DNA of 29,302 nt from an uncultured Pseudomonadota bacterium (GCA_963770835.1 CAVYRH010000012.1:1-29302); one strand, 5' to 3'. Positions 7,501-28,691 are shown, numbered from the stretch's first letter. A program made the numbers and translations. Notes: generated by a model from the sequence alone, not told the origin.

Positions 7501-7506
7501 GGGATA

Positions 7507-7534
7507 ATTATATTCCCAGGCTTCCGGGTGTCAA
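7507..7534 (-). promoter_or_regulatory. Sigma70 promoter TTGACA-16-TATAAT
   Basis: Plus strand TGTCAA 7529-7534 and ATTATA 7507-7512. Confidence 0.75.
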
Positions 7535-7555
7535 TAACAAACGGAGGCCTTTAGT

Positions 7556-12690: not shown

Positions 12691-12731
12691 TTTACTAACC
12701 TGTAGAGCTTTATTTTTAAAGGCCAATAATT

Positions 12732-13553: not shown

Positions 13554-13567
13554 GGAATCTTCATTTG

Positions 13568-13585
13568 ATTCTCATATGTGAGAAT
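13568..13585. repeat. Palindrome TTCTCAC(A/G)TGTGAGAA family, copy 1 of 4
   Basis: ATTCTCATATGTGAGAAT upstream of the relaxase gene. Confidence 0.7.
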
Positions 13586-13626
13586 AAACAAACTATAACG
13601 ACAAATTAAGGCAGTTTGACCACCAA

Positions 13627-14460: not shown

Positions 14461-14467
14461 AACCAAA

Positions 14468-14489
14468 GAATTCTCACGTGTGAGAATTC
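14468..14489. repeat. Palindrome copy 2 of 4
   Basis: GAATTCTCACGTGTGAGAATTC just after the relaxase stop. Confidence 0.75.
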
Positions 14490-14550
14490 CGAAAAAGGTT
14501 AAAACCGTATTAACCTTTTTCTTTCATAAAATCCTTATCCCACAAGGCTT

Positions 14551-14646
14551 TTACCACCCGCTTGCGCCCCGACCCCGCTCTCCCAATGTCACATAGAGAT
14601 GTGCCAGTTGGTTTGAGAGCGGGGTCGGGGCGCAAGCGGGTGGTAA
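14551..14646. other. Perfect 32-bp inverted repeat, candidate oriT
   Basis: TTACCACCCGCTTGCGCCCCGACCCCGCTCTC 14551-14582 and its exact reverse complement 14615-14646; the loop has further pairing. Confidence 0.55.
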
Positions 14647-14826
14647 GTGTAATGTGATTTTATGTTTGGTTTTTTAAAACGAAAGTCAGAAGCGAAAGGA
14701 TCAATTTTCAGCCGAGGTTCATGGCTGAAAATTGGAAATCGGCCGAGCCGATTTCAGAAAGGTTTGATTCCGGGTCCCAGGGTGGTTCGTCCTGGAACCC
14801 GGAATCCTCCAAAGCCTTTTTAAAAG

Positions 14827-14840
14827 TCTCACATGTGAGA
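14827..14840. repeat. Palindrome copy 3 of 4
   Basis: TCTCACATGTGAGA. Confidence 0.75.
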
Positions 14841-15012
14841 ATAAAATAAAGTTTATGACAATTAAACCACCACTTTAAGGTCTTTAGCTTCCAGCGGTTG
14901 GCGAAACCAACCCAAGAACCCAAACTTCCGGTAAGCGGAAGTCACCTTGCCGCAGCTCCGGCGGCGGTTTTCGCCGGGGCCGCTTGTTATAATCCCTAAG
15001 AGGGGTTTCGGG

Positions 15013-15207
15013 ATGGAGTTCTGCAAGCTTTGTAAAAAGGAATTAACCGTAAGGGACAAGGACGGGGTCCATCGGGGTTGCCAGGAATGGATCAACAAAC
15101 TGGAATCCGGCGACGTCGTTGACTTGTTTCCGGAGATTCCGAGTTGGCCCAAAAGATACAAGCGTGAATATTTGGAAGATTCAGAATCTGAAAAGGATTT
15201 GGGTTAA
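15013..15207 (+). CDS. Small putative zinc-finger protein
   Basis: MEFCKLC...HRGC; extended -10 TGTTATAAT and GAGGGG RBS upstream. Confidence 0.5.
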   Translation: MEFCKLCKKELTVRDKDGVHRGCQEWINKLESGDVVDLFPEIPSWPKRYKREYLEDSESEKDLG

Positions 15208-15291
15208 TAACGGTTATCCCGAATTTTGTTCGGTATAAAAATTGTTATACCGAAAAGAACTTGACAACAACTTTATATTTCAGGGGTTTAC

Positions 15292-15636
15292 TTGAAGCTC
15301 AGGATCAACAACATCGAGTTTCTGCAGAAAAAATTCATGGCTGGCCGCCTGTTCTTCAAGGCCTACTTCGACCTGGACGAATCCCTTGGGAACGTCTATT
15401 CGGCCATATACATGGCCCAGGAAGATCCGGCCAGCCCCGTGGGTTTCGAATTCGAGGGCGGCATTTTGGACGCGCCCAAAAGCAAGAATGGCAAAAAGAT
15501 TTCCGACATTGGGCGAGTCGCGCGCCGGGCAATAATGCGGGAGACATTGGGGCGGGCATTGGAAAAACAGCTAATCACCACTGAGGTTTTTTCGGTGTCG
15601 ATGGCCGCCATTGGGAAAGATTCGGAAATTCCTTAA
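15292..15636 (+). CDS. Hypothetical protein (114 aa)
   Basis: Plausible composition, AGGGG RBS, TTGACA upstream; no motif recognised. Confidence 0.55.
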   Translation: MKLRINNIEFLQKKFMAGRLFFKAYFDLDESLGNVYSAIYMAQEDPASPVGFEFEGGILDAPKSKNGKKISDIGRVARRAIMRETLGRALEKQLITTEVFSVSMAAIGKDSEIP

Positions 15637-15928
15637 AAAGCACTCCCCCGAAACTTTTATAAAATAGTTATATAATGTTCTTGACAAAATTACTGTGTTT
15701 AGTTGGGGTGTTTTCTGTTTTCAGCTTCATCGAGGTCTTTAAAAACATTAAACACCCCGCATTGAGGGTTCTGGCAAATGAACCTGACTTTTTGTTTTTT
15801 GGGTTTTCCTGGGTCGGAGATGGGTTTGCGGTCTATTTCTTTTAATTCCGAATTGCATGATTCACAGAGAGGCATCGAAACTCCTTCTACATCTTTTTGA
15901 GCTCCTGTTAATTATAACGTGGCCGGGG

Positions 15929-15945
15929 ATTCTCACATGTGAGAA
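15929..15945. repeat. Palindrome copy 4 of 4
   Basis: ATTCTCACATGTGAGAA. Confidence 0.75.
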
Positions 15946-16205
15946 CCCGGACGGATAGTCAAAAAAGGTGGTTTTTGCCCTTTGCATTTAAAGGCCGTTT
16001 TTTGGGGTCGATTTTTTCGGCCAGGGTGATGAGACTTTGTGGTCCATTTGGCGGCCTAAAAGAATACAACCGTATACTTTTTGGTGGCAAGCCTTTCGGC
16101 TTGAGGGACTTTGGAATTTCCCCTCGCCCCCTCCCACCGGGCTGTCCCCGGGGGGACACTCCCCCAACCATCTACATTGACAGGCACCCTTGCGCCAGCG
16201 CAGAT

Positions 16206-16282
16206 GCGGCGCTAGCTCAAGGGTAGAGCGCCCAAGTTCGCCACTTGGGGGGTTGCGGGTTCGATTCCCGTGCGCCGCTTCA
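16206..16282 (+). tRNA. Atypical tRNA (Gly-like acceptor end) with a 19-nt anticodon arm
   Basis: Acceptor GCGGCGC/GCGCCGC, discriminator T then TCA; D arm GCTC/GAGC; T arm GCGGG-TTCGATT-CCCGT; anticodon arm CCCAAGTTCGCCACTTGGG. Confidence 0.75.
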
Positions 16283-16430
16283 TCTTTTCCCAGGGTAGGC
16301 CGCCTGTCAATGTCCACCCTTGACACCTGAACTTCCCGGCGTAAGAATTTCAATTGAAGGGATCGGGATTGGCGAGCACACCAGGACCGGAAACGTTCCT
16401 GGGTGGCCTTAACTGGCTGCAGGTTCCTTT

Positions 16431-16684: not shown

Positions 16685-17323
16685 TTTAATGCCTTGAAGG
16701 GGGAAGGGAATAGGGAGCCGCTGGCTACGCCTTCGGCACTTCCCTCTTCCCTGGTATTCCCCCTGGGTCGAGCTTCCCTTCACTCCGTTCCGGGCGATCT
16801 CTCCCCACCCCTTTACCCGGGGGCGTTAGCCCCCAAGCCCCTAAACAAAAGGGCTTCCCTTTTGTAATTCCCTTCCGCTTTGCGTGCGCTTCCGCGATCC
16901 GCTTTCCTCGGGGGACTCCCCTTCCCTTTTCCTTTGGGTTCCCCACCAATAGAGTCGTCTTGAGAAGAAGCCGGCTCCGTTGGTCCCCCCGCAAAGGCGG
17001 TTCCCCGCCCGGTCCACAACAACCGCGGCCCTGGCAGGAAACCGATAAAGGTAAGGGGTCTTCGCGTCCTCAAGGCCGTTTCCAAAAAGGAAAAGTTCGG
17101 TGTCGGCTCAAAAAATACCACCTCGATTTCCCTTTTTGTAAAACCTCCGCTTGAAGCCTGGCGGCTTCCCTGCCTTTCGGGTCTAGTGGCAGCACCAAGA
17201 GGTAAAAGCCTTCAGCTTTCCTATTCCCCACTTCCCTTCCCCATCTGGTGGATCCTCCAAAGGTTGACGTGCCGGCCGCCGCAAAGACCGCGTGTGCCGG
17301 CGATCTTTTGGATCCCATTTATT

Positions 17324-17607
17324 GGGTCGAAGCCGGCCCAAACCCCCGCCATGACCAGTGAAGATTCCTTTGAAAATTTATTTCTTTAAGATGCGCCGAC
17401 TGCGAGGCACCTCCCACGCCAATCCGAAACCGGGATTGTCATGTGAGGCAAGGCCGACGCCGCTTTCGCTTTGTGAATAAATCCCCAAGACGGAATCCCC
17501 TTCTTAATTTCCAGCCCCGCCGCCGGTTTGTGCCGGCGGGGCCGGAAATTTAAAAGTCCCGCAAAAGAGGCCGAAGGCCCCAGGCAAAAAAATAAAGGAG
17601 CAAGTCA
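17324..17607 (+). repeat. Conserved structured leader A, copy 1
   Basis: Near-identical to 20292-20619; multiple stem-loops; ends in AAGGAG RBS. Confidence 0.85.
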
Positions 17608-17916
17608 ATGGGACTGCAAATCGAAGTGAAGGATATGAAAAAAACCAAAAAGGAGGACACCAAGACCTTAGCGTTTTTCAAGGTCACGGTATCAGTGGAC
17701 GGTGAGCCGGTTATCACCCTGCCGAATTACCGATTGGTCAAGACCGACAAGGGTTTGAAGGTGGACGCCGCAATCCACGAGGTCAAGCAAGCGAAGGAGC
17801 AAGGTGGAAAGCCTGAATTCATCAAGTGCTACTACCCATTCAACAACCTCAACGAAAAGGTTCTGCCCGAAGCCGAGAAGGTCTACAAGGCTCTCCCGGT
17901 GAAAAAGGGCAAATAA
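17608..17916 (+). CDS. SpoVG-like protein, family A copy 1
   Basis: TLAFFKVTV...LPNYRLVKTDKGLKV...YYPFNNLNEKVL..Y. Confidence 0.6.
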   Translation: MGLQIEVKDMKKTKKEDTKTLAFFKVTVSVDGEPVITLPNYRLVKTDKGLKVDAAIHEVKQAKEQGGKPEFIKCYYPFNNLNEKVLPEAEKVYKALPVKKGK

Positions 17917-17988
17917 GAGGAACAGCCCCGCCGGGGGCGCCGCCGAAAACGGCGCTACCCGGCAACATTTTTTTAGAAGGGGGAAAGA

Positions 17989-18171
17989 ATGTTTTTTATT
18001 CAGGTCAAAAATTCTTGGACTGGTCAGCTTGCCGGGGCTATAAGTGAAACGGACTCGGAAGCCTTTGATATGGTTCTACAGGAAAAAGGTTGGAAACCCT
18101 GGGACGTCCAGATCGTCGTAAGGGAACAAATAGACCCAAGCCTTTACCGCCAGGAGGATTTAAAGGGCTAG
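17989..18171 (+). CDS. Small hypothetical protein (60 aa)
   Basis: Purine-rich RBS, follows the SpoVG-like gene. Confidence 0.45.
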   Translation: MFFIQVKNSWTGQLAGAISETDSEAFDMVLQEKGWKPWDVQIVVREQIDPSLYRQEDLKG

Positions 18172-18174
18172 AAC

Positions 18175-18203
18175 TTGACGTGTGCCACAAATGTCGCTAC
18201 AAT
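18175..18203 (+). promoter_or_regulatory. Promoter TTGACG-17-TACAAT with overlapping operator-like repeats
   Basis: TGTGCCACAA and TGTCGCTACAA in spacer and -10; related to the motif at 21745-21782. Confidence 0.6.
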
Positions 18204-18242
18204 TTATTTACGGTTATACGAACGCGAGGGAAACGAGGACTT

Positions 18243-18587
18243 ATGGCATTGAAACCGGAAGATGTGAAGGTTTGGGCAATCGAAGAATTAGAACGGGTTA
18301 AAGAAAAAATAAAAGCCTTCGATGAAATGCCCAACGGTGCAATGTTCCGGGACCTTTATTTGAAATTTAAAGGTTACCTAAAAACCTTTCCGCCCGACAG
18401 CCGGGTTTTCTCAGTTCCCTTGAGTGATGGCGGGGGCCTTTGGGTTGTCCATAGCGAACAAAAGCGGATTTTGTTAGTGGCACAATATTCCGCCCGATAC
18501 GAAATCTGTTTAGTTAAACACCTTTTTTTGGCCGAGGAAGTGACCCAGGCCCTTTTTGATAAAATCATCAAAGGAGAAAAAATATGA
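18243..18587 (+). CDS. Hypothetical protein, possibly RelE-like fold; paralog of 21834..22202
   Basis: Shared LKTFPP, G.WV, LLV..Y, C.V motifs; GAGG RBS. Confidence 0.6.
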   Translation: MALKPEDVKVWAIEELERVKEKIKAFDEMPNGAMFRDLYLKFKGYLKTFPPDSRVFSVPLSDGGGLWVVHSEQKRILLVAQYSARYEICLVKHLFLAEEVTQALFDKIIKGEKI

Positions 18588-19039
18588 AAACCCAAAAAGT
18601 TCATTTCCGGTTCAACCGGCGAATTGGGGTCAACAAAAGCGAAATGATCCGCTTTCGAGTTGACCTTATGAGGAAAAAGTCTTGGGTCGAGGCAATGGAA
18701 GCCTTGGGGGTGAAAGATTTTTCATCTTTTGCCCGGCAAGCCATTGACGGGGCCATTGACCGGGACTTTCGGGCCAAGGACCCTAAATGGCAGGAGTTTT
18801 TGAAGGCCGTAAAAGATATTTCCATCAAAATTTTGGGTTACCAGTTGATTGATAATCCTTCTTTGCGGAACCAGGATTTGACCGAAACCGAAAATATTTT
18901 GTACAAGAGGGGCCGGGAGTTGGCCCGCACCAGGGGAATAACCCATACTAAGGAACTGCCCACCCCTGAAAAAAAGACCATACGGTTTTCAGGGCGGCGC
19001 CCGGTTGTCATTCGTCATGCCCATGCGGCGAGGGCTTAA
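18584..19039 (+). CDS. Ribbon-helix-helix-like protein; paralog of 22232..22600
   Basis: IRFRV...W.EA..ALGVKDFSSFAR.A...DPKWQ.FL; ATGA overlap. Confidence 0.65.
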   Translation: MKTQKVHFRFNRRIGVNKSEMIRFRVDLMRKKSWVEAMEALGVKDFSSFARQAIDGAIDRDFRAKDPKWQEFLKAVKDISIKILGYQLIDNPSLRNQDLTETENILYKRGRELARTRGITHTKELPTPEKKTIRFSGRRPVVIRHAHAARA

Positions 19040-19278
19040 TTTGAAAAGCAAACCAGAGGAAACAGGGAAGCTCTCCCTTAAAAAACCCGACGCCAAGACC
19101 GCCGCGAAGATTGACAAGGCGGTCAAACATGCGGAAAAAATCGGGGAATGGATTTCTGATAAAGAATTAAGACCCCATGCTCATGGGAAATAAAACTAAG
19201 AAACCAAAGACCTCATCAAACACTTGAAGAAACTTTAAGAGCTAATTGTCCTCGAAGGAGGACAGCGGCCTTTTGGAG

Positions 19279-19310
19279 AAAAGCCCCGCCTTTCGGCAGG
19301 GGCTTTTTTT
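19279..19310. terminator. Bidirectional intrinsic terminator
   Basis: AAAAGCCCCGCC-TTTC-GGCAGGGGCTTTTTTT between convergent genes. Confidence 0.75.
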
Positions 19311-19492
19311 ATAACTGTTTTGTTTCCGCGTTTTTTTCGCAAACAGATTCATTCCAGCTTCGAAAAGTATCAAACAAAAAAAGCCCGACCCCTTCCGGGG
19401 CCGGGCCATTTTCCGGCTTTCACTTCTTCACGAAGTTTTGTGCCAGTTCCTTTTTTGGGAACTGGCGCACACAAGGCCAGCGCCTCGGTTTG

Positions 19493-19919
19493 TTACCTCC
19501 GCGCAGTGGGCTTCCACTCCTTTTTCGGCCACGTCTTAGCAGGTGCCGCCGCACTCGTCACAGCCGCCGGCCCGGCCACCGCGGGCACCACAGAACTCGC
19601 CAGTGTCGTGGGAACCACGGACGCCAGACTCGCTGGTTTCTCCCCGTCTTTCCGCCACCGCTTTGCGGTAGGCTTCCAAGCCCTCATGCGTGATCAAATC
19701 CCTCAAGGCCTTGTTCAAGTAGTAGAAGGGAACAAATCCCACTTCCTTGAACTGCCGTGACGGCAAATCCACGAAAGTCCCCTTGGCCCCCTCGACAATT
19801 CTCATCCCTGGCCAAATAGCCTCGTACTTCTCCTCAAACGTCACCTTTGCCGAGAACGTCCCGACCTGCTGTCCCTTCTTGGCGATATTCAACTTCACAA
19901 CTTCAATCTTTGGATTCAT
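19493..19919 (-). CDS. SpoVG-like protein, family B copy 1 (probable frameshift near 19650; Ala/Pro-rich tail)
   Basis: GMRIVEGAKGTFVDLPSR resembles the SpoVG IRVIDG..GLFVAMPS motif; GAGGAGG RBS; as written the frame stops at 19536. Confidence 0.7.
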
Positions 19920-20113
19920 GCGAATCCTCCTCATTTTTATTTGAGGGTTCCGCGCCTTTTTACTGCGCCCCCCTCTACGAACGAGTAGGGGGGCGCGGGT
20001 AAAAAGGATTTTGCTTTTGGCTAAAGGGAAGTAGCGAAGCGGATTTCCTGTAGCTCCGGTCGGTAATCCTTTAAGCGACGAATCGCGAGAGTGAAACGCC
20101 AGCGTTCGAGGCC
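19920..20113 (-). repeat. Conserved structured leader B, copy 1
   Basis: Shares GCGCCCCC/GGGGGCGC stem, GTAAAAAG, AGCGAAGCG, AAGCGACGAA and CAGCGTTCGAGGCC with 23197-23377. Confidence 0.7.
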
Positions 20114-20291
20114 TGGTTCACCGTCCACGGTATTTGGGGACGAGGGAAGGGGCGTGAGACCCAAGGCCGCTCGCTGGGTTTATTTATTTGTACTTTGTGA
20201 AAGCCTATTCCCTACCTTCAAACACAAAAGAAGGTTCGCCGGCCGCCGATTTCGCGGGCGTGTAACCTTCATCCATCCCCCCAATCCAGAT

Positions 20292-20619
20292 GGGCCGAAG
20301 CCGGCCCAAACCCCAGCCATGCCCATTGTAGATTCCTTTGAAAATTTATTTCTTAAAGACGCGCTGACTGCGAGGCACCTCCCACGCCAATCCAAAACCG
20401 GGATTGTCATGTGAGGCCGACCCAATTGGCCTTCGGCCAAGGGCGATTGGAAACCATCGGGTCGGCGCCGCTGTCGCTTTGTGAATAAATCCCCAAGACG
20501 GAATCCCCTTCTTAATTTCCAGCCCCGCCGCCGGCCTTGTGCCGGCGGGGCCGGAAATTTAAAAGTCCCGCAAAAAAGAGGCCGAAGGCCCCAGGCAAAA
20601 AGGATAAAGGAGCAAGTCC
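20292..20619 (+). repeat. Conserved structured leader A, copy 2
   Basis: Near-identical to 17324-17607 plus an inserted self-pairing subdomain. Confidence 0.85.
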
Positions 20620-20917
20620 ATGGGACTGCAAATCGAAGTGAAGGACATGAAGAAATCGAAAAAGGAGGAAACCAAGACCCTTGCGTCTTTCAAGGTCACG
20701 GTTTCGGTGGACGGTGAGCCTCTCATCACCCTGCCGAACTACCGGCTCGTCCAGACGGACAAGGGTTTGAAGGTGGACGCCGCCATCCACGAAGTCATCC
20801 AGCCGAAGAAGGCCGGGGACAAGGCGACTTCATCAAGTGTTACTACCCCTTCGCCAACCTGAACGACGAGGTTTTGCCGGAGGCCAAAAGGTCTTCAAGG
20901 GACTTCCGGTCAAGTAA
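20620..20917 (+). CDS. SpoVG-like protein, family A copy 2 (two apparent frameshifts)
   Basis: Close paralog of 17608..17916; FIKCYYPF and VFKGLPVK* continue in shifted frames. Confidence 0.6.
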
Positions 20918-20980
20918 CCAGGAACGGCCCCGCCGGGGGCCTAAACCCGGCAATCCTTTTTCAGGAGAAGCGAATGACGC

Positions 20981-21009
20981 TTGACAATATGTCTCCCACG
21001 GGAGACAAT
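20981..21009 (+). promoter_or_regulatory. TA promoter TTGACA-17-GACAAT with palindromic operator
   Basis: TGTCTCCC-AC-GGGAGACA 20990-21007; ATG just downstream suggests a leaderless transcript. Confidence 0.7.
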
Positions 21010-21014
21010 TAGCA

Positions 21015-21356
21015 ATGGAAGCCAGACCAAGGACGCTCCTCGAATACCAGACCACGAAAGGCGAAAAGCCTTTTCAAGTTTGGTTGGACTCCGTTAAGGA
21101 TGCCAAGGCGAAGAAGGCGGTTTTCGACCGTTTGCGCCGGGCCCAACTCGGAACCCTCGGGCATTGTGACGACGTCGGGGAAGGGGTTTGGGGCTTCAAG
21201 ATCGACGTAGGGCCGGGTTACCGGGTCTACTTCGGTCAGGACGGGCCGGTTCTGGTAATCCTCCTTTTGGGTGGTGAGAAGCACGGCCAACAAAAGGATA
21301 TTAACCTGGCCAAGGATTACTGGCAGAACTATAAGGCCAGAAAAGGGAAAGGGTGA
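21015..21356 (+). CDS. RelE/ParE-family addiction module killer toxin (HigB-like)
   Basis: PF..WL..VKD..A, VGEGV, IDVGPGYRVYF, LLLGG.K..Q..DI..A..YW. Confidence 0.88.
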   Translation: MEARPRTLLEYQTTKGEKPFQVWLDSVKDAKAKKAVFDRLRRAQLGTLGHCDDVGEGVWGFKIDVGPGYRVYFGQDGPVLVILLLGGEKHGQQKDINLAKDYWQNYKARKGKG

Positions 21357-21361
21357 TTCCT

Positions 21362-21716
21362 ATGAAAAAGAAAAAAGTAATTTCTCCCCGGCGGAACCTT
21401 TCGACCTCAACGGAGTTGTAGCCAAGAACTTGAAAAAGGACGAGGCTTTCCGCCGGAATACCTCAAAGACCTCCTGACCGAAAAGGACCTTCCTTTCCTG
21501 GCCGCTAGTCTCAAGCCTGTGGTCCAAGCCTTGGGTGGGGTGGGGAACTTCTCAAAGGAAACGGGCTTGGGTCGCCAAAGCCTCTACAAGGCCTTGTCCG
21601 GTAAAGTTCTCCCGGACTTCCCGACCCTCATCAAAATTCTCAACTTCGCTGGTTACGACCTAGCCTTGAAGAAAAGGGAACACCACGGCCGCAAAACCCA
21701 CGCTTTAGCTCATTGA
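21362..21716 (+). CDS. HTH addiction module antidote (HigA-like), apparent frameshifts in the 5' part
   Basis: ALGG....SKETGLGRQSLYKALS....P.F.TL.KIL...G. Confidence 0.8.
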
Positions 21717-21744
21717 CGGCCCCCGGTAATCTTAACCCGGTAAT

Positions 21745-21782
21745 TTGTAGCTCTTGTTTGTAGCTACAATTTGTAGTATATT
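21745..21782 (+). promoter_or_regulatory. Promoter TTGTTT-17-TATATT with TTGTAG repeats and TTGTAGCTACAA palindrome
   Basis: TTGTAG at 21745, 21758 and 21771 (13-bp period). Confidence 0.55.
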
Positions 21783-21833
21783 CCTTAGAGACGGGGAAGG
21801 GTTGGTTGAAGCCAATCCTTTACGGAAAGAAAC

Positions 21834-22202
21834 ATGAACGAGACGACCGGCGATTCCTTTGACGACATGAAATTTTTCAACCCCTGGGAGGTCAGGATTG
21901 ATGACGGGATCAACCCAAAGCTCGTTGATATCTTCAAAAAACATCCCTTGTTGCAAAAGCCCTTCTTCACGTTCCTGGACGAACTGAAGACCTTCCCGCC
22001 AAATGCCGACCACTTCAAGGAACCCATGAGGTCCTACTACGAGGAAGGGGTTTGGGTCACCATCACGGACGGGCATATCCGCCTGGCCTTGTTGGTGGAG
22101 TACCGGAAGCACGAGCAAACCTGTTGGGTGGTGGAGGCCGCGTTGGACGTACCGCGCGGGCATGATTGGTTGAAGGATTGGTATAAGAAAAAGAAATTTT
22201 AG
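21834..22202 (+). CDS. Hypothetical protein, possibly RelE-like fold; paralog of 18243..18587
   Basis: LKTFPP...GVWV...IRLALLVEY...CWV. Confidence 0.6.
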   Translation: MNETTGDSFDDMKFFNPWEVRIDDGINPKLVDIFKKHPLLQKPFFTFLDELKTFPPNADHFKEPMRSYYEEGVWVTITDGHIRLALLVEYRKHEQTCWVVEAALDVPRGHDWLKDWYKKKKF

Positions 22203-22231
22203 TAAAAACGAAACAGGGTTGGAGGTAAAGC

Positions 22232-22600
22232 ATGAAAGCCCATGTCGCAGAAAAGTCGAGTTTCTTCCCGGTTATTCGGGGAGAGGAGGAAAAATCTATC
22301 ACCCTTCGTTTTCGGGCGACGCCTTCCCAGGCGAAATATTGGGAAGAATCCCTGAAAGCTTTGGGCGTGAAGGACTTTTCGTCCTTCGCCCGCGGGGCCG
22401 TTCAGGCCGCCATCGAAATGGGCCAAAAGGCCCATGACCCCAAGTGGCAGGATTTCCTTGAGGCTATCCAGCCTATCGCCAAGAAGAAGCTGGGTTATGG
22501 AATCTTCCATGGTGGCGCGACCGTCACCGAGGGTTACGGCAAGGAGCGCAAGGGAATCACCGCCGAGGAATTCAACCGCCAAGTAGAAAAAAAGAAATAA
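22232..22600 (+). CDS. Ribbon-helix-helix-like protein; paralog of 18584..19039
   Basis: ITLRFRA...ALGVKDFSSFAR...DPKWQDFL; GGAGG RBS. Confidence 0.65.
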   Translation: MKAHVAEKSSFFPVIRGEEEKSITLRFRATPSQAKYWEESLKALGVKDFSSFARGAVQAAIEMGQKAHDPKWQDFLEAIQPIAKKKLGYGIFHGGATVTEGYGKERKGITAEEFNRQVEKKK

Positions 22601-22881
22601 AAACCACAGGGAACTAAAGAACACCACCTTGGGGGAAAACCGTGAAATCAAAACGTAAACAGGCTAAGCTATCTCGCCGAAAAAGCCGGTTTAAATAAAT
22701 CCAACAAATTCCTTTTAAATTTAATGGAACAAAGTTTTACAAACCTGGCCAAGCTCGTCAAAGATTGGAGGAAGAACTAGAAAAGGCGGTCAAAAAAATG
22801 GAAAGGAAATCAAAAGTTCAAGAAATAGGCCTAACTCCCCGAAATTTGCAGGGGAGGAACCCTCCCTGCGCCTCTCCTTTC

Positions 22882-23196
22882 TCATTCCTGCTCTAACTTC
22901 TTCTCAAGGGTCGCCTGTTCGTAGGCGTCCAAGGCCTGGTCCTGGATCAACTCCTTCAGGGGCTTGTTCAGGTAGTACAGCGGGACCGGGTCCTGGCTCT
23001 CCTTGTACTTCCTGGTGGGGACGTCCACGAATGTCCCCTTGCTTCCTTCGATGACGACCATCTTCGGGAAGTGCGTCTCGTAGCTGACCTCGTTCCCTTC
23101 CTCCTTATGGACGAAGGAAACCTTGGCGGTGAACGTCGCCACCAGCTGGCCCTTCCTTCCCAGGTACAACTTCAAAATCCCAACCTTTGGATTCAT
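22882..23196 (-). CDS. SpoVG-like protein, family B copy 2
   Basis: KMVVIEGSKGTFVDVPTR...YYLNKPLKELI...LDAY; GAGGAGG RBS. Confidence 0.7.
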   Translation of the reverse strand: MNPKVGILKLYLGRKGQLVATFTAKVSFVHKEEGNEVSYETHFPKMVVIEGSKGTFVDVPTRKYKESQDPVPLYYLNKPLKELIQDQALDAYEQATLEKKLEQE

Positions 23197-23377
23197 GCGA
23201 ACCCTCCTCAATTATTTTTTGAAGAGGCGCGTTTGGAGGCGCCCCCTCACCAACCGGAAGGGGGGCGCCGTAAAAAGATTAGGTTTTGCGGGAGGGAAGA
23301 AGCGAAGCGAATTCCCGGGAGCTTTGCCTTGGGTTAAAGCGACGAAGCGCGAAAACGAAGTGACAGCGTTCGAGGCC
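23197..23377 (-). repeat. Conserved structured leader B, copy 2
   Basis: Motif and stem conservation with 19920-20113. Confidence 0.7.
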
Positions 23378-23542
23378 CGCCGCCGGGCCCGGGTTTTCCG
23401 GGCCGGGCGGGGTCCCGGAGGGCTAGGGCCGGTCGCGTTTTTTTGTCTTTTGGCCCTAAGGTGAAAAGCCTTTCGGCTTTTTTTGTAAAGGTTTTGTTCT
23501 CGCCGCATTTTGCAAAAGGGGTAAAATTACCTGAATAAAGCT

Positions 23543-23570
23543 TGTCCACGACGGGGACCCGTCGTGGACA
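23543..23570. repeat. 28-bp palindromic site 1 of 5
   Basis: TGTCCACGACGGG-GA-CCCGTCGTGGACA. Confidence 0.95.
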
Positions 23571-23595
23571 AGCCATGGAGGCGAATTTGGAACAA

Positions 23596-24069
23596 ATGAA
23601 GATATTTTTTATTTTTGTGCTTTTATTGGCTGGAGTGGGGTATTCAAAGGAAATGGTTTCCAAACCTCTTTATGTCAACGGAAGCCAATTTGAGGGTGTT
23701 ATTTTTCAGTGCGGAGACCCTTCAATGCCGTCTGATAAACCCTGCTGGACGCCAAATGTATATCAGGTGCGCCAAATGGAAAATCACCTTGGAGCCTTCC
23801 TGCTGGCTCAACATAACAGAATCAAAAATTCGAACCCATTATGGAAAGCTTGGGATTCTTCAAAAAACTTCAGCGAATACAAACGGCAGTATTGGGGCTT
23901 ATACGAAAAAGGGCGCAAGGTGATTTACGTAAGCTTATTTTGCCTGGCTGAGAAAGATTGGAAAGAAAAGGTGCATCGAGCCCACGGCGGGGGGACTTGT
24001 TTTTTGGAAATCAAATACGATCCCGGAACCGGGGAATATTTCGACTACGGGGAAAATCCCCCAAAATGA
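23596..24069 (+). CDS. Secreted hypothetical protein (cassette 1)
   Basis: Signal-peptide-like MKIFFIFVLLLAGVGYS; four Cys; stop 8 nt before site 2; alternative start at 23575. Confidence 0.7.
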   Translation: MKIFFIFVLLLAGVGYSKEMVSKPLYVNGSQFEGVIFQCGDPSMPSDKPCWTPNVYQVRQMENHLGAFLLAQHNRIKNSNPLWKAWDSSKNFSEYKRQYWGLYEKGRKVIYVSLFCLAEKDWKEKVHRAHGGGTCFLEIKYDPGTGEYFDYGENPPK

Positions 24070-24077
24070 AGTTTTAA

Positions 24078-24105
24078 TGTCCACGACGGGGACCCGTCGT
24101 GGACA
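24078..24105. repeat. 28-bp palindromic site 2 of 5
   Basis: Identical to site 1. Confidence 0.95.
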
Positions 24106-24183
24106 GGTCTTAGGGCATTAAATGGGATTGCGAACCATGCCTAATGGATATACAATCGTATATATAGAAAAGGAGGTTTTCCT

Positions 24184-24417
24184 ATGAAAACTTTAATTGT
24201 TCTTCCCGATGAATTGGGAGCCGAGCTGAAGCATACCATTCCCGCCCGCCAAAGAAGCCGGTTTGTGGCGGAAGCTGTTGAAAAACAACTTCGGTCTATG
24301 AAATTCAAAAAGGTTCTCAAACAAACCGCTGGTTCGTGGACGGATAAAAATCATCCTGATATGACAACCCAAGCGGGGATTAACCGCCACTTGGGCCGAA
24401 TCCGGGGATGGAGTTAA
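24184..24417 (+). CDS. RHH-type antitoxin (VapB-like) (cassette 2)
   Basis: KTLIVLPDEL...RSRFVAEAV...AGSW; AAGGAGG RBS; upstream of a PIN toxin. Confidence 0.75.
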   Translation: MKTLIVLPDELGAELKHTIPARQRSRFVAEAVEKQLRSMKFKKVLKQTAGSWTDKNHPDMTTQAGINRHLGRIRGWS

Positions 24418-24426
24418 TCCGAGTCC

Positions 24427-24816
24427 ATGCCCTACTTGATAGATTCCGACGTTATTATTTGGGCTCTTCGCGGGCGTTCAGAGATTGTGGAACTCTTGTT
24501 AAATCTTTCAGAGGAAGAATCCATAGCCTGTTCAGCCATCAATGTTTTGGAAGTCGAGGTCGGAGCTAAAGCTTCCGAGATGAAAGCGGTCCATCAGCAT
24601 TTGGGAAGCTATGAGATACTTCCGGTACTCCCGTCAACAGCACGAAAAGCCGCTGAAATTCTTCGCTCATTTTCCCGCAAACCCCATCGGGGTGAATGGG
24701 CCGACGCAGTCATTGCCGCTACGGCCCTACTTAATGATTTGACGTTGGTCACCTTTAACACCCGTCATTACCAATACCCAGGGCTTTCACTTTATCCAAC
24801 GAAGGACATCACTTAG
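24427..24816 (+). CDS. vapC: PIN-domain toxin (cassette 2)
   Basis: YLIDSDVII, SAINVLEV..G, DAVIAATA, LVTFNTRHY. Confidence 0.9.
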   Translation: MPYLIDSDVIIWALRGRSEIVELLLNLSEEESIACSAINVLEVEVGAKASEMKAVHQHLGSYEILPVLPSTARKAAEILRSFSRKPHRGEWADAVIAATALLNDLTLVTFNTRHYQYPGLSLYPTKDIT

Positions 24817-24838
24817 TGTTTTGAGTGAGGCTGTAGGT

Positions 24839-24866
24839 TGTCCACGACGGGGACCCGTCGTGGACA
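24839..24866. repeat. 28-bp palindromic site 3 of 5
   Basis: Identical to site 1. Confidence 0.95.
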
Positions 24867-25065
24867 GGGAAAATCGAAAGATGGTTAGATCGAAGTGATT
24901 ATTAAAGGAAAATTATGTCGAAGCTTTGGTCCTGCCGAAAGTGTGGACGGAAAAACGAAGGGCTCTCTTGTGTCAATTGTGGCAACCCCAAAAGACACCC
25001 TTTCGATTATAAATTCATCATTTTTGTTGATTGCGGCCTGGTTCTTTTTATCCTGTTAGTTTTAT

Positions 25066-25628
25066 AAAACTTGCCAGAAAACCCCAGGCTTTTAAGCCTG
25101 GGGATGAATGGCTGCCCGGAGGCCCGACAGGTTTTTTGTCGGGCCGCAGGCCATAAAATATGGCATGCTTTGGTCATGTCAAAATACTGGGTAGGGGCAC
25201 ACACCAAGCACCGTCTGCAATTTCATCTCGTTTGGATACCGAAGTACCGGAAGCGAGTCTTGGATAGCAAAATAGCCGTCCGCCTGCAGGAGCTGTTTAA
25301 AGAGGCGGCCCAAGTAAACCGATGGGAAATCCACGAGTTAAATATTCAACGAGATCACGTGCATATGCTGATCCAGGTTGAGCCAAGGGTGAGTGTAGCC
25401 AAAGTAGTACAGATTCTAAAAGGTGGGACAAGTATCAAGATAAGGGAAGAATTTCCAGCTTTGCAGGAGTTCCTTTGGGGCGATAGTTTTTGGGCGGACG
25501 GGTATTTTGCGGAAAGTATAGGTACGGTGCAGGAAGAAATGATTCGCAAGTATATCCGGGAGCAACAGCATGACCAAAGTATGCTGAAAGGCTGAAACCC
25601 CGGGCTTTAGCCCGGGGAGTAGCTTCAT
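25066..25628 (+). mobile_element. IS200/IS605-family insertion sequence (tnpA only)
   Basis: Inserted 3' of TTAT, ends TCAT; subterminal hairpins CCCCAGGCT/AGCCTGGGG 25082-25103 and CCCCGGGCT/AGCCCGGGG 25598-25617. Confidence 0.85.
25176..25595 (+). CDS. tnpA: Y1 HUH transposase
   Basis: HLVWIPKYRK, DHVHML (HUH), LKG.TS, FWADGYF..S.G, IRKYI.EQ. Confidence 0.93.
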   Translation: MSKYWVGAHTKHRLQFHLVWIPKYRKRVLDSKIAVRLQELFKEAAQVNRWEIHELNIQRDHVHMLIQVEPRVSVAKVVQILKGGTSIKIREEFPALQEFLWGDSFWADGYFAESIGTVQEEMIRKYIREQQHDQSMLKG

Positions 25629-25929
25629 TAAAAGTCGTTCCAACTTTCGCGGATGTTTTCTCGAGTTTTGGCGGAACTCTTTTCTGGCCCAGAGAACTGG
25701 TCTTTAGATTATCCAATTTTACGAAAACTTTTCCGGGTGAATTAATATTTGGGGTTGTTTGGCTGGCTATATTAGTTTCCTTTGTTCTAGGTATTAAAAA
25801 ACAGGTGAAGTTTAAGTATTGGGCGATCTTGTTCTGGTTTCTTTTACTGATTTTGATCTTTTTAATAGTAATTATGTTTATGCCTGAAATTGGGTTGGGG
25901 CCGGTATCGAATTGAATCCGTTTGGAACT

Positions 25930-25957
25930 TGTCCACGACGGGGACCCATCGTGGACA
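25930..25957. repeat. 28-bp palindromic site 4 of 5 (one mismatch)
   Basis: TGTCCACGACGGG-GA-CCCATCGTGGACA. Confidence 0.93.
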
Positions 25958-26014
25958 GCTTGGATGTCGACCCAAAGAGAAAAACAGTGATCCAATAAGT
26001 AAGGATTAGATCTT

Positions 26015-26788
26015 ATGACTGACCACTATATTTTATTTGGCGCTCAATCACTTCTTGGCTTTTTTCTTTTCGCTCTTCTGGTCTGGAAACCTATCTTCCG
26101 AAGAAAAAAGATCGTACGAATTTGTCTTCTGGTTTTAATTGGGCTGGCAATCCTATTAAGTTTAGTTGCGTCATTTTTTCTTGATTCTTTCTGGAATTCC
26201 AATCCGGCGGTGGTCCAAAAGGCTTGCCTTGATCTTTTAATAGTTTTATGGCCTGTCGGTTTGTGCTTTTTATGTCGATGGAAGGCGATAAATCTTAAGG
26301 CTCGGGTCTTACGTGTGCTTGGCATATTGTTTCTAGGGCTTTTCGTCGGGATCAATCTTTGGTACTCCATCCCGGCCATCCTGAATGAGCCATATATGCC
26401 TCACGACGTCAAAGTCGAAAGGACCTCACCCCAAAACGGTACGATCGCCACGATCTTTTTTCGATATGGGCCGAGCATGTTCAATGATGGACAGACTTAT
26501 CTGAATCTTCGCCGAAAAGGAACCCCATTCCATCCAGTTGATTATTTACTAAGGAATTATTTGGAAGATAATCCGGCCAACATCATGATTTTGACGGGGT
26601 ACGATGCCCATTACGAACCGATCGATTTAGTATGGGTGGATGAAACGCATTTAAAGGTTCTGGTGTCGAACTATGACAAATTGTCCAAAAATACTTGGGC
26701 TGATTACGACCATTACGCGACCCTCTTTGAAAAGAAGAAAGACCGTTGGGAGAACGTCGAAATCGACTACGTGGATAAGAGTAAATAG
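26015..26788 (+). CDS. Membrane protein with 4 TM segments and a soluble C-domain (cassette 4)
   Basis: Hydrophobic N-half; SPQNG, I.L.W.D...L.V motifs; AAGGA RBS. Confidence 0.75.
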   Translation: MTDHYILFGAQSLLGFFLFALLVWKPIFRRKKIVRICLLVLIGLAILLSLVASFFLDSFWNSNPAVVQKACLDLLIVLWPVGLCFLCRWKAINLKARVLRVLGILFLGLFVGINLWYSIPAILNEPYMPHDVKVERTSPQNGTIATIFFRYGPSMFNDGQTYLNLRRKGTPFHPVDYLLRNYLEDNPANIMILTGYDAHYEPIDLVWVDETHLKVLVSNYDKLSKNTWADYDHYATLFEKKKDRWENVEIDYVDKSK

Positions 26789-26820
26789 TTAAATCGACCA
26801 TGTCGTTCATTAAGGTAAGC

Positions 26821-26848
26821 TGTCCACGACGGGGACCCGTCGTGGACA
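26821..26848. repeat. 28-bp palindromic site 5 of 5
   Basis: Identical to site 1. Confidence 0.95.
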
Positions 26849-26863: not shown

Positions 26864-27646
26864 TTAATTCTGTATCTGTAGGTCGCACTCGGTATTGATG
26901 GACTTGGTTTCCTGCTTGAAGACCTTGTCGAAATTCTTCATCAAGTAATGCACGTCTTCCACCTGGTCGTTCAAGATCTTGTGGAAATCCTGGATCGACA
27001 TGAATTGCTGCTCGTAGACCTTGGAATAGGGGAAATAACTCCAGTGCCAGGGTTCGTCCCGGACCGCCCCGCGTTTCCCCAAATAAACTTTGCAAAAACC
27101 GAATACAGGGGCGTTGTGCTCCATCCAGTTGTAAAACTGGATGACCCGGACGGGGGTATCGGGGTGCACGTTCACCAATTGGCCCCTCAAGCTGGCTTCC
27201 GAAATATCCATGTCCGTGCCCCAGTGGTGCCGCGAAAGGCCGGGAACCGAAACCAGGCTCATGACGGCCCTCACCCTCCTCTTGGCGTCCAGGTTGTCGG
27301 TTTTTTTGTAAAGGGAATCGTAATGGTTCCAAATCTTCATTTGGTGCTTGAAGGACCTGTGGCCGGAAACAAGGATCAAATGCCAGCCGTCCTGGGCGGC
27401 TTTGTCCCGGAGCTTCCAAAAACTTTGCATGACTTGCGCGATGGCGTATTGGCCGGATTCGGGGTCCTCGATCATGTCGGGAGGCGATTGCAGCCCCAAG
27501 ATCTGTTCGTCGGTTATGGGGGGAGGAGGGGTTGGGACTTCCGGCGCCTGGCCCACCGGGGGAGCCGGCTTAAGGGCCAGGTGCTGGGTGGCGCAACCCC
27601 ATAGGCAGCTCAGGATCAGGAAGAGGGAAACGAAGCGTAATAGCAC
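26864..27646 (-). CDS. M15-family D-Ala-D-Ala carboxypeptidase lipoprotein (VanY-like)
   Basis: Lipobox LWGC; SGHRS..HQ, PGLSRHHWGTDMD, EPWHWSY. Confidence 0.88.
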   Translation of the reverse strand: MLLRFVSLFLILSCLWGCATQHLALKPAPPVGQAPEVPTPPPPITDEQILGLQSPPDMIEDPESGQYAIAQVMQSFWKLRDKAAQDGWHLILVSGHRSFKHQMKIWNHYDSLYKKTDNLDAKRRVRAVMSLVSVPGLSRHHWGTDMDISEASLRGQLVNVHPDTPVRVIQFYNWMEHNAPVFGFCKVYLGKRGAVRDEPWHWSYFPYSKVYEQQFMSIQDFHKILNDQVEDVHYLMKNFDKVFKQETKSINTECDLQIQN

Positions 27647-27673: not shown

Positions 27674-27832
27674 GGTAGTGAGTCAGTTTGAGTTGGACAA
27701 CCTTAAGGCACCCCTCACCCTACCCTCTCCCCCAAGGGGCGAGGGTCTTTAGCGGCATTTCCCCCTCTCCCTTGAGGGGAGAGGGCGGGGTGAGGGTGGA
27801 GTCGCATTTTCTTTTCAAACTGATGTACTACC
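27674..27832. repeat. MITE/REPIN-like element
   Basis: Termini GGTAGTGAGTCAGTTTGA and TCAAACTGATGTACTACC enclose two inverted CCCTCACCC..CCCTCTCCC..GAGGG units. Confidence 0.7.
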
Positions 27833-28535: not shown

Positions 28536-28691
28536 GGCAGTGTATCAGTTTGAAAGAAAATGTTGCTCCACCCTCACCCCACCCTCTCCCCTCGAGGGAG
28601 AGGGGGAACATCTACCAAACCCTCGCCCCTTGCGGGAGAGGGCAGGGTGAGGGGTGTCTTGAAGTTGTTCAAGTCAAACTGAGACACCACC
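28536..28691. repeat. MITE/REPIN-like element, second copy
   Basis: Termini GGCAGTGTATCAGTTTGA and TCAAACTGAGACACCACC with the same internal inverted units. Confidence 0.7.

Follow-up and report, generated by a model that had tools for sequence, protein, structure and literature searches.

What is a 28-bp palindrome doing at every joint of a run of small, co-oriented genes? A sequence-only reading of the 29,302-nucleotide stretch of DNA analyzed here, from an uncultured soil bacterium (the window), had answered that it delimits a cassette array whose sites are neither attC nor Xer sites and whose recombinase lies outside the window. Our analysis supports that reading, and we put at about even the chances that the palindromes both join four cassettes into an array and serve as double-stranded crossover sites for a shortened serine recombinase whose gene lies on another contig.

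Four cassettes between five sites

The consensus site, TGTCCACGACGGGGACCCGTCGTGGACA, can be written as 13-GA-13 and is identical at site 1 (23543..23570, the first joint), site 2 (24078..24105), site 3 (24839..24866) and site 5 (26821..26848, the last joint), while site 4 (25930..25957) shows a single change, G to A at position 19. All lie on the plus strand. As had been stated, these five near-identical copies are the only ones in the window, whose first 23.5 kb contains none.

Each of the four intervals codes on the plus strand only and holds one unit, with stop-to-next-site gaps of 8, 22, 12 and 32 nt for cassettes 1 to 4, in agreement with the 8-32 nt described before. Cassette 1 (23575..24069, +) is a 164-aa ORF without a Pfam family, and its hydrophobic, signal-peptide-like N-terminus fits the secreted protein originally proposed. 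Cassette 2 (24184..24816, +), described as a VapBC pair with its own promoter-like sequence, is likely a toxin-antitoxin pair: a Pfam profile search found a PIN domain (60.2 bits) on the VapC-like ORF 24427-24816, but no match for the small ORF 24184-24417 upstream of it. The promoter-like sequence (TTGCGA-17-TACAAT, 24128-24156) is indeed present ahead of the VapB-like gene, but such matches are no commoner in the region than in shuffled sequence (4 found vs 4.7 expected). Cassette 3 (24915..25917, +) is a 143-aa ORF (24915-25060 plus 25630-25917) interrupted by an IS200 copy (25061-25629; TnpA ORF 25071-25595, Y1_Tnp 141 bits) that has five more identical copies elsewhere in the genome. The reading of this unit as a zinc-ribbon membrane gene was borne out as far as the reading frame, which is whole again once 25061-25629 is omitted, and the hydrophobic tail; the start is only weakly zinc-ribbon-like, with matches under the Pfam cut-off, and no T2SS-F/PilC match appeared even at E values up to 1. 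Cassette 4 (26015..26788, +) encodes a 257-aa membrane protein with no Pfam family. The cargo was correctly seen as AT-richer than its surroundings, with a GC content of 0.42-0.48 within the array and 0.55-0.59 in the flanks (500-base bins). Downstream, a VanY-like gene on the minus strand (26864-27646) converges on the array and has its stop 15 nt from site 5. The array also borders a region with conjugation functions (VirB4/TraG-type ATPase, coupling protein, ParA-like gene).

One array among many in the genome and family

The array in the window is one of many. About 85 co-oriented copies of the site were found in this genome, on 15 of its 26 contigs; allowing up to 5 mismatches there are 82, with a uniform orientation on each contig save for one degenerate copy, and at up to 3 mismatches the whole genome gave 52 forward and 48 reverse matches, and none to the pattern read backwards. 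The copy mapping called for by the sequence-only reading thus returned sites that are clustered and co-oriented, not dispersed in both orientations. Inter-site intervals of at most 4 kb make up 53 of 69 (median 991 bp) and contain 17,996 ORF residues along the site orientation vs 2,152 against it. Moreover, at 71 of the 87 sites the 60 nt upstream contain the end of a co-oriented frame that is 60 codons or longer, compared with 20/87 when the orientation is flipped and 410/2000 at random places. The other arrays are likewise AT-richer than the genome, have mostly one gene per unit and occupy many chromosomal loci, many of them without an enzyme gene beside them. Among their genes, many encode toxin-antitoxin pairs, acetyltransferases or proteins without a known function.

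The site has an 18-base core that 21 of 24 relatives within the family (candidate division FCPU426) share and that is identical across 16 genera. In 15 genomes that represent eight further families of phylum FCPU426 it was not found, nor was the site found in one genome of the family itself (G019, 97% complete), and viral contigs gave no exact match to the 18-mer. The VanY locus of three same-genus relatives shows neither a site nor a pseudo-site, so it offers no empty-site comparison. Several mobile elements were observed at these sites: a full group II intron inserted exactly at the boundary between site positions 11 and 12, an ORF-less intron type directly behind the site, both in cassette orientation, and IS110-family elements at or beside sites.

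Sequence properties of the site

Site statistics were drawn from 151 non-redundant sites, the length in the family being 28-30 bp. Positions 11-15 (GGGGA) are 98-100% conserved, position 16 is conserved in 82% and position 19 in 54%, and the left half-site is far more conserved than the right. Perfect palindromes account for only 25 of the 151 sites, and Watson-Crick pairing of mirror positions equals the expectation under independence (for positions 10/19, 71 observed vs 72.4 expected). Across these alignments, then, the half-sites evolve independently and hairpin covariation is absent, which points to a double-stranded protein site and not to an attC site, a REP or a terminator. An intrinsic terminator was called at 0 of the 5 window sites, and in the site alignment the site is followed by R and then A-rich bases with no T run. 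The attC cores RYYYAAC/GTTRRRY do not occur in the 28-mer, just as the sequence-only reading had said. The 28-mer can be read equally well as 11-6-11 or 13-2-13.

Cassettes recur in different contexts, with exchange points inside the site

Whether cassette content varies with breakpoints inside the site had been posed as a test, and both in this genome and in its relatives it does. Cassette 4 recurs at C3:411995-412913, C15:2019-2937 and C25:28912-29830; its upstream neighbors are different on each of C12, C3 and C15, while C25 ends at the site, and the right half carrying A19 accompanies the cassette in all four copies. Copies of cassette 2 that are 84-86% identical follow a site in relative G002 and on contig C5 of this genome, with other neighbors. 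On the other side, the 6.2-kb left flank of the array (17374-23571) recurs at 98% identity on C16, where the copy stops exactly at the site and different cassettes follow. In relative G002, too, one cassette occurs in two settings that share an identical flank, and a cassette shared by metagenome contigs L152 and L165 keeps the inner half-sites while the outer halves and the neighbors differ.

The position of the exchange could be bracketed from pairs of sites that share one flank at 97-100% identity. Where only the left flank is shared (n = 4), the differences are confined to positions 19-28, and where only the right flank is shared (n = 5), to positions 5-10; each cassette brings the right half of the preceding site and the left half of the following one. 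These sequence comparisons showed exchange points falling between site positions 11 and 18, a bracket that is not narrowed to the GA: in a pool of 307 sites, 64 differ somewhere within positions 11-18, and they yielded one informative pair, whose shared flank is the end of an IS110 element. Fourteen soil or metagenome runs (Logan contigs) contain at most 0.39 of the sampled words; in the four of them that were compared, many loose contig ends fall exactly at sites, and the assembled contigs, the only material covered, contain no cassette-skipping joints.

A short serine recombinase is the candidate enzyme

In line with the recombinase expected beyond the window, one site-linked serine recombinase lies on another contig and is the candidate enzyme. 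It is the only Resolvase-domain gene in the genome (C17:12078-12905) and encodes 275 aa with a Resolvase domain (PF00239, 80.2 bits) and a Recombinase domain (PF07508, 41.6 bits, residues 186-268). The protein ends 7 aa past the latter, and zinc ribbon and coiled coil are absent. Residues Y14, R16, S18, R62, D87, R88 and R91 are invariant across 16 homologues. Its sequence matches 3guv and 3bvp, and the structure predicted for it agrees with the Bxb1, phiC31 and LI integrases over their N-terminal and recombinase domains (131 columns at 2.4 A rmsd against 4kis_C; TM 0.69 against Bxb1 9iu2_A). Judged from a dN/dS of 0.08-0.16 among five orthologues, the short recombinase is under purifying selection. 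The short form was found only in the site-bearing family; other matches in 99 genomes of the phylum are at least 484 aa long and at most 55% identical, the open frames of homologues outside the phylum span 448-573 aa, and in a plasmid collection all 121 matches fall below 60% identity, the ten listed reaching at most 32%.

The gene occupies the downstream end of an array, toward which it points. In 5/5 intact orthologues, including one that an intron splits, and in 7/7 gene remnants, the stop codon is followed by a site after 9-40 nt. On the 5' side there is no site within 8 kb at five loci (L082, L083, L084, L099 and L100), and in the genome of the window (G000) the nearest one is 6.2 kb away. 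No conserved extra ORF was found upstream of the recombinase, where only a short promoter/RBS-like stretch aligns (the G020 row is from the wrong side of the gene). The neighbors include ArdC, HigBA and RadC genes in G000 and ArdC in G043, and no genes of these types in G004 and G024.

Intact short recombinase genes are present in 5 of the 31 family genomes, and around 170 sites in 320 kb of metagenome DNA the sole trace of a serine recombinase is a 42-aa remnant. A Resolvase-domain gene was not found in four of the five site-rich relatives tested (G002, G012, G023 and G018; 89-99% complete), which is the main objection to this candidate. The phiC31 integrase, when cut before its zinc finger, is reported to have a much lower affinity for att sites (PMC3152356). 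Since the truncated phiC31 protein binds weakly, a natural form without a zinc-finger domain would need another hold on DNA.

A model for cassette capture

We propose that a dimer of the 275-aa recombinase would bind each 13-GA-13 site, that two sites would pair, and that all four strands would be cut around the GA. Being non-palindromic, the GA would permit a single alignment, and recombination between direct repeats would release a one-site circle able to re-enter any site in one orientation. Such a forced alignment would account for the N+1 sites per N cassettes and for their uniform direction. Without a coiled coil the enzyme would not distinguish attP from attB, all sites would be equivalent, and it could act in trans on many arrays. 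That the serine recombinase is the acting enzyme and that the cut falls at the site center are inferred. The better-conserved left half-site speaks against the model, as a symmetric dimer does not explain it, and so do the sparse occurrence of the gene in the family and around the metagenome sites, the weak binding of truncated phiC31 integrase, the crossover bracket of positions 11-18, and G002, in which no Resolvase-domain gene was found although one cassette occurs there in two contexts.

A broader form of the proposal, to which we give slightly less than an even chance, is that a whole family of the uncultured phylum FCPU426 carries a second, independently evolved integron, in which a serine recombinase devoid of zinc ribbon and coiled coil would exchange single-gene cassettes at the center of a 13-GA-13 double-stranded site, with many arrays per genome, some at the edge of a conjugative element. 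Among the titles and abstracts listed in literature searches there was no description of serine-recombinase cassette arrays or of palindromic non-attC sites. Publications on FCPU426, among the matches listed, are surveys.

Alternative explanations

The alternative that survives best, though we regard it as rather unlikely, is that the cassette system is real and another enzyme drives it, either an unidentified recombinase or a host tyrosine recombinase acting on an 11-6-11 site (arms TGTCCACGACG and CGTCGTGGACA, spacer GGGACC) after the model of XerC/D at pdif modules. The 28-mer suits 11-6-11 no worse than 13-2-13, the group II intron insertion falls exactly at the 11|12 boundary, and arrays remain in relatives without a serine recombinase. 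The genome has about 12 tyrosine recombinase genes, and on C26 one of them is separated by some 0.8 kb from a single site at the contig end, but that integrase is one of six paralogues and the other five are far from sites. Moreover, the profile that finds the 12 genes in the genome recovered one weak 92-aa fragment in the 320 kb of metagenome DNA around 170 sites. Position 16, which would belong to the spacer, departs from the consensus in 18% of sites and can differ inside a single array, while the GA is 98-100% constant. At the curated cut-off of 329.6 bits no gene qualifies as XerD-type (best 169.9 bits, the best matches being three tandem genes), and since the site is absent from G019 (97% complete) and from 15/15 genomes of eight other families, the 28-mer is not the chromosomal dif site. 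A canonical dif search with a loose motif returned about 80 scattered matches and no usable site, the best match lying beside three tandem tyrosine recombinases.

It is improbable that the short serine recombinase is instead the integrase of a conjugative or integrative element, with the palindrome as its attachment site and the cassettes hitch-hiking by tandem accretion. Such a role would fit the region with conjugation genes next to the window array, the ArdC, HigBA and RadC genes beside the recombinase in G000 and the ArdC gene in G043, and the C3 locus copy, where the same ArdC-RadC block (95.6% identical) precedes the first site at a distance of about 1.3 kb, measured from the RadC end, to 4.5 kb. 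However, no such neighbors accompany the recombinase in G004 and G024, the majority of cassettes consist of one small gene and are spread over many chromosomal loci, and no site pair was seen around a whole conjugative element. The first 23.5 kb of the window is free of sites.

Still more improbable is an ordinary repeated extragenic element (REP-like, a terminator or an operator) with rearrangements due to homologous recombination between copies. Short palindromes behind gene ends in tens of copies per genome would be typical of it, and mobile introns and IS110-family elements, for which hairpins are frequent homing targets, sit at or beside the site. Against this reading, the mirror positions do not covary and perfect palindromes are few (25/151); no copy in the window is called as a terminator, and the site is followed by R and an A-rich stretch in place of a T run; the copies are clustered and co-oriented, not dispersed or in head-to-head pairs; and the core is identical in 16 genera. 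The Y1-transposase genes are nine IS200 copies and two others, none flanked by the site. Furthermore, the exchange point lies on the central side of the marker in 9/9 clean pairs. Finally, atypical attC sites of a classical integron with an unassembled integrase are barely credible: the co-oriented, mostly one-gene, AT-richer units with many toxin-antitoxin pairs and unknown proteins would suit them, but the integron-integrase model TIGR02249 (cut-off 265 bits) passes in 0 of 31 family genomes (best score in G000, 44.6 bits), the site spans 28-30 bp vs about 57-141 bp for attC, and it is sequence and not structure that is conserved, with no compensatory change.

Significance

To our knowledge, integrons are the sole well-understood route by which bacteria bank and reshuffle single genes, with one enzyme family and one single-stranded site; current integron finders are, as far as we know, blind beyond IntI and attC, and we know of no cultured member of phylum FCPU426. 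If the serine-recombinase model is true, the same strategy arose twice from unrelated parts, here a serine recombinase and a plain double-stranded palindrome, and the search for gene-capture platforms would widen past IntI and attC. In that case the serine recombinase, compact, direction-free and acting on a 28-bp site, could also serve as a tool. The system is open to a bench test with one gene and one short site.

Comparison with known systems

The arrays resemble integrons and CALINs in their co-oriented, mostly single-gene, AT-richer cassettes that each end in a recombination site, in a cargo rich in toxin-antitoxin pairs, acetyltransferases and unknowns, in the many arrays without an enzyme, and in the group II introns and IS110-family elements that home to the site. 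attC sites are imperfect hairpins with R''/L''-L'/R' boxes whose structure is conserved rather than their sequence. Here, in contrast, the site is a sequence-conserved, double-stranded palindrome of 28-30 bp and not a folded single-strand attC, IntI was not found in the 31 genomes, a distinct attI is lacking, the gene of the candidate enzyme is downstream and convergent, and N cassettes have N+1 equal sites. Group IIC-attC introns are likewise mobile and target the recombination sites of cassette arrays; the introns seen here differ in that one type lies between positions 11 and 12 and the ORF-less type right behind the site.

REP/BIME elements with their RAYTs share the short palindromes behind genes and their conservation within a lineage, but the present sites are clustered and co-oriented, bound exchangeable genes, do not conserve a hairpin and have no associated RAYT. 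The pdif modules of Acinetobacter plasmids, mobilized by XerC/D, have 28-bp 11-6-11 sites in alternating orientation with Xer arm sequences. Common to both systems are a 28-bp site of 11-6-11 length and small modules, toxin-antitoxin pairs included, that recur in different contexts; here, however, all sites are direct repeats, the would-be spacer is variable and a canonical XerD was not found.

SCC elements are inserted and excised by the large serine recombinases CcrAB/CcrC as cassettes that can be stacked in tandem and are bounded by direct site repeats; they span tens of kb, use a single site in rlmH and rely on full-length recombinases with zinc ribbon and coiled coil. Stackable cassettes between direct repeats and a serine recombinase (a candidate one in our case) are shared features, whereas our cassettes are ~1 kb, the arrays occupy 15 contigs, and the single short enzyme lacks zinc ribbon and coiled coil. 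Compared with large serine recombinases (the Bxb1, phiC31, LI and SPbeta integrases and TnpX), the candidate stops after the recombinase domain (275 aa vs 448-573 aa in the homologues of other phyla) and faces identical palindromes instead of distinct attP and attB. It is like them in the sequence and predicted fold of its catalytic and recombinase domains and, if the cut falls there, in a non-palindromic central dinucleotide that would set polarity.

Organization of the array and its surroundings

Five copies of the palindrome TGTCCACGACGGGGACCCGTCGTGGACA lie in the window (starts 23543, 24078, 24839, 25930 and 26821), and we found no further copy within it. Sites 1, 2, 3 and 5 are identical and site 4 (25930) has an A instead of a G at position 19. 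All coding in the four inter-site intervals is on the plus strand: cassette 1 encodes a 164-aa protein with a signal-like start, cassette 2 a PIN-domain (VapC-like) protein whose gene comes after a small ORF, cassette 3 a 143-aa ORF whose frame becomes continuous once an IS200 copy (25061-25629) is omitted, and cassette 4 a 257-aa membrane protein. The stop codons precede the next site by 8, 22, 12 and 32 nt, respectively, and the GC content of the array is 0.42-0.48 versus 0.55-0.59 in the adjoining DNA. From the site copies, the interval coding, the stop-to-site gaps and the GC content, the description given in the sequence-only reading is therefore correct: near-identical sites found nowhere else in the window, one plus-strand unit per interval ending 8-32 nt before the next site, cargo more AT-rich than its flanks, and a cassette 3 gene revealed by removal of IS200. 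The IS200 copy has hairpin ends and a Y1 transposase (141 bits); the genome, a 26-contig metagenome-assembled genome, holds six identical copies, five of them outside the window, and three more at 83% identity.

Conjugation genes lie in the left part of the window (1-16300): they encode a VirB4/TraG-P-loop ATPase at 1762-4464, a ParA-like ATPase at 8637-9680 and, at 10534-12690, a type IV coupling protein. An RNase H gene (12732-13553) and a tRNA-Ala(cgc) (16206-16279) are found in this part as well. The array therefore stands at the edge of a probable conjugative element. A 40-nt direct repeat (TCTCAYATGTGAGAATAAA...) precedes two ORFs at 13570-13609 and 14827-14866 and may serve the transfer region as operators; at 14551-14646 the two perfectly matching 32-nt arms of an inverted repeat are separated by 32 nt. 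Two tandem modules of ~3 kb each fill 17323-23510, each pairing a minus-strand ORF that is weakly SpoVG-like (19536-19934 and 22882-23211) with non-coding DNA rich in GC and hairpins (about 19967-20113 and 23239-23440), and similar modules stand before the first sites on contigs C16, C22 and C3. Beyond the array, a ~160-bp repeat rich in CCCTC/GAGGG hairpins (27674-27832 and 28536-28691) forms an inverted pair around a histidine-phosphatase gene, with dozens of copies scattered over the genome.

Distribution of the site

Allowing up to 5 mismatches, the genome contains 82 sites on 15 of its 26 contigs, and a profile search recovered 87 full-length sites. The site pattern read backwards gave no match across the 4.58 Mb. 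Dispersed copies in both orientations would be typical of an ordinary REP; the copies are instead clustered, and each contig has a single site orientation throughout the genome, except for one degenerate copy. Intervals between successive sites are 4 kb or shorter in 53 of 69 cases (median 991 bp), and ORFs of at least 60 aa within them amount to 17,996 residues in the site orientation versus 2,152 against it, the latter being partly spurious frames within introns. For 71/87 sites, a co-oriented open frame of 60 codons or more has its end no further than 60 nt upstream, compared with 20/87 when the sites are flipped and 410/2000 random places. Contigs C22, C25 and C17 begin or finish in a site, so the arrays break the assembly.

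Of 24 other genomes of the family, 21 carry the first 18 bases of the site (at most 1 mismatch), across 16 genera and in up to 95 copies; a sister family has one copy, and all 15 genomes from eight further families of the phylum lack them. G019, a family genome that is 97% complete, also has no copy. In JGI metagenomes, exact matching gave at least 153 stretches with the site, from which 61 non-redundant loci (320 kb) were retained, with 170 sites likewise in co-oriented rows; IMG/VR viral contigs gave no exact match to the 18-mer. In the literature searched we found no account of such a cassette system.

Cargo and mobile elements at the site

About half of the 82 cassette-interval ORFs scanned against Pfam have no family. 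The remainder include four PIN-domain toxin genes (one preceded by a VapB-like and another by a FitA-like antitoxin gene), a RelE/MqsA-like pair, a TacA/GNAT pair, a MazE-like antitoxin, several GNAT acetyltransferases, secreted and membrane proteins and a citrate transporter. A Cas1 gene (230 bits) is also cassette cargo, being the first ORF past a site at C15:16146-17186 (minus strand) and on C16 behind site 35972; the right flank of these sites recurs behind a third site, at C3:47167.

Mobile elements of three kinds are found at the site. A full group II intron, which starts with GTGCG and carries a ~455-aa reverse transcriptase and maturase ORF, lies in cassette orientation precisely between positions 11 and 12 of at least five sites (e.g., C3:1710-3678). 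An ORF-less group II intron of ~0.8 kb (Rfam RF02003, 57.8 bits, and RF00029, 41 bits, matching D1-D4 and D5-D6) lies directly behind the site in 14 places (e.g., C11:111634-112434, equivalent to L005:1529-2328), sometimes where the full intron has already split it. Finally, IS110-family (DEDD) transposase genes directly adjoin sites (C3:45328-46500, C3:81921-83100, C3:103000-103117 and C8:165072-); they occur on both sides and in both orientations, and the palindrome is abutted by the same end of the element.

Exchange at the site

Cassette 4 occurs on four contigs, with three different upstream neighbours on C12 (the window), C3 and C15, while on C25 the assembly breaks at the site; the A19 variant precedes it in all four copies. 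A 6.2-kb stretch directly left of site 1 is repeated on C16 at 98%; the match stops precisely at a site there, beyond which the two contigs carry different cassettes. The last cassette together with the VanY flank beyond site 5 is repeated on C3 at 99.7%, where it is the only cassette, and on C25 at 97.6%. Whether these within-genome copies are paralogues or co-assembled strains (contamination 3.65%), their content differs and breaks at the site. The window's VapBC-like cassette also lies behind a site in the relative G002, at 84% identity and among unrelated neighbours.

We then drew together 307 sites (four genomes, five recombinase loci and the metagenome loci) and took as informative those pairs in which one 40-nt flank, but not the other, is 97-100% identical. 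Differences are confined to positions 19-28 in pairs sharing the left flank (n = 4) and to positions 5-10 in pairs sharing the right flank (n = 5, 4 independent); more diverged pairs (flank identity 90-95%) differ on both sides, matching ordinary divergence. One cassette present in two metagenome contigs has kept its two inner half-sites (the right half upstream, the left half downstream), and the outer half-sites and neighbours differ. The cassette unit thus consists of a right half-site, the gene or genes and a left half-site, with the exchange point bracketed to positions 11-18. The expectation that cassette content would vary with breakpoints inside the site was thus borne out, by the different neighbours and by breaks between positions 11 and 18. 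We consider the cassette reading well supported and hold it with high confidence.

Sequence properties of the site

In a set of 151 non-redundant sites, conservation is 98-100% at positions 11-15 (GGGGA), 82% at position 16 and 54-85% at positions 19-22; a Y precedes the site in 89% and an R follows it in 90%. Mirror pairing equals that expected if the halves were independent (71 vs 72.4 for positions 10/19, 109 vs 104.8 for 9/20 and 122 vs 122.4 for 13/16) and perfect palindromes are few (25/151), so selection acts on two half-site sequences rather than on a hairpin. The same evidence speaks against attC-like strand folding, against a REP and against a terminator, and terminator scoring was negative for all five window sites (0/5). 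The view that the sites are not attC thus agrees with the lack of hairpin-type pairing among the 151.

A candidate recombinase

The sequence-only reading placed the recombinase outside the window or had it act in trans, and the only Resolvase-domain gene of the genome, C17:12078-12905, is linked to a site on another contig. The 275-aa product combines the Resolvase and Recombinase Pfam domains and stops 7 residues past the latter; its predicted structure (mean pLDDT 79.8) matches the N-terminal and recombinase domains of the Bxb1, phiC31, SPbeta-type and LI integrases. Homologues in other phyla (44-58% identity) are ordinary integrases of 448-573 aa, several adjoining tRNA genes; the form in this family (candidate division FCPU426) is thus a large serine recombinase from which zinc ribbon and coiled coil have been lost. 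The gene is not decaying: dN/dS among five orthologues is 0.08-0.16 and the catalytic residues are invariant.

This short form was found solely in the site-bearing family. In the genome studied, an oppositely oriented site begins 15 nt beyond its stop codon, and such a site lies 9-40 nt past the stop in 5/5 intact orthologues (G000, the genome studied, and its relatives G043, G004, G024 and G020), being split by a group II intron in G020; 7/7 gene remnants have a site placed in the same way. Relative to the site orientation, the gene is downstream and antisense to the cassettes. The gene-side half of the adjoining site is degenerate in four lineages and the far half matches the consensus. No site lies within 8 kb of the recombinase 5' side at five loci (L082, L083, L084, L099 and L100), and the nearest one on that side in the genome studied is 6.2 kb off.

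Several observations count against this enzyme. Intact copies were seen in only 5/31 family genomes; four of five site-rich relatives have no Resolvase-domain gene and the fifth has two unrelated small resolvases and a remnant of the short form; and the 320 kb around the 170 metagenome sites contain a lone 42-aa remnant. G002, one of the relatives lacking the gene, still shows one cassette in two different settings with a flank that is 100% identical. The left half-site is more strongly conserved than the right, an asymmetry that a symmetric dimer leaves unaccounted for. Array contigs, being AT-richer and fragmented, may often be missed by binning, and integrase-less attC clusters are common for integrons; we count both as excuses, not as evidence. 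In addition, when phiC31 integrase is truncated ahead of its zinc finger, its binding to att sites is weak (PMC3152356).

The short recombinase could alternatively be the integrase of a transfer element: the first 16 kb of the window hold conjugation genes, the recombinase adjoins ArdC-HigBA-RadC in the genome studied and ArdC in G043, and this ArdC-RadC block is repeated before the C3 copy of the window array, but two other orthologues have no such neighbours. A tyrosine recombinase may instead run the system, since one of ~12 such genes in the genome lies 0.8 kb from a lone site; however, its five paralogues are not near sites, a profile recovering all 12 found a single weak fragment near metagenome sites, and the genome has no canonical XerD. 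An 11-6-11 reading, proper to a tyrosine enzyme, would put the variable position 16 in the spacer. Between that lone site and the integrase gene, at C26:881465-882280 (equivalent to L031:433-1250), we noted about eight TTGGTAGYTTT-like repeats, each beside a small hairpin, which may be arm-type binding sites. Separately, three tandem tyrosine recombinase genes (C10:6741-10010), with a dif-like palindrome ~100 bp upstream (C10:6601-6628), look like a recombinase-in-trio element.

A REP-like element or a classical integron fails on the co-oriented, clustered copies, the missing hairpin signal and the lack of an integron integrase above the curated cut-off in the genome studied and in all 31 family genomes. 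The serine recombinase is the best candidate for the enzyme, and we give about even odds to the joint statement that these are cassette arrays with the short serine recombinase as their enzyme. Serine recombinases, as at resolvase/invertase and integrase sites, usually cross over at a 13-2-13 palindrome whose centre is invariant and non-palindromic, and the site described here has this 13-GA-13 form.
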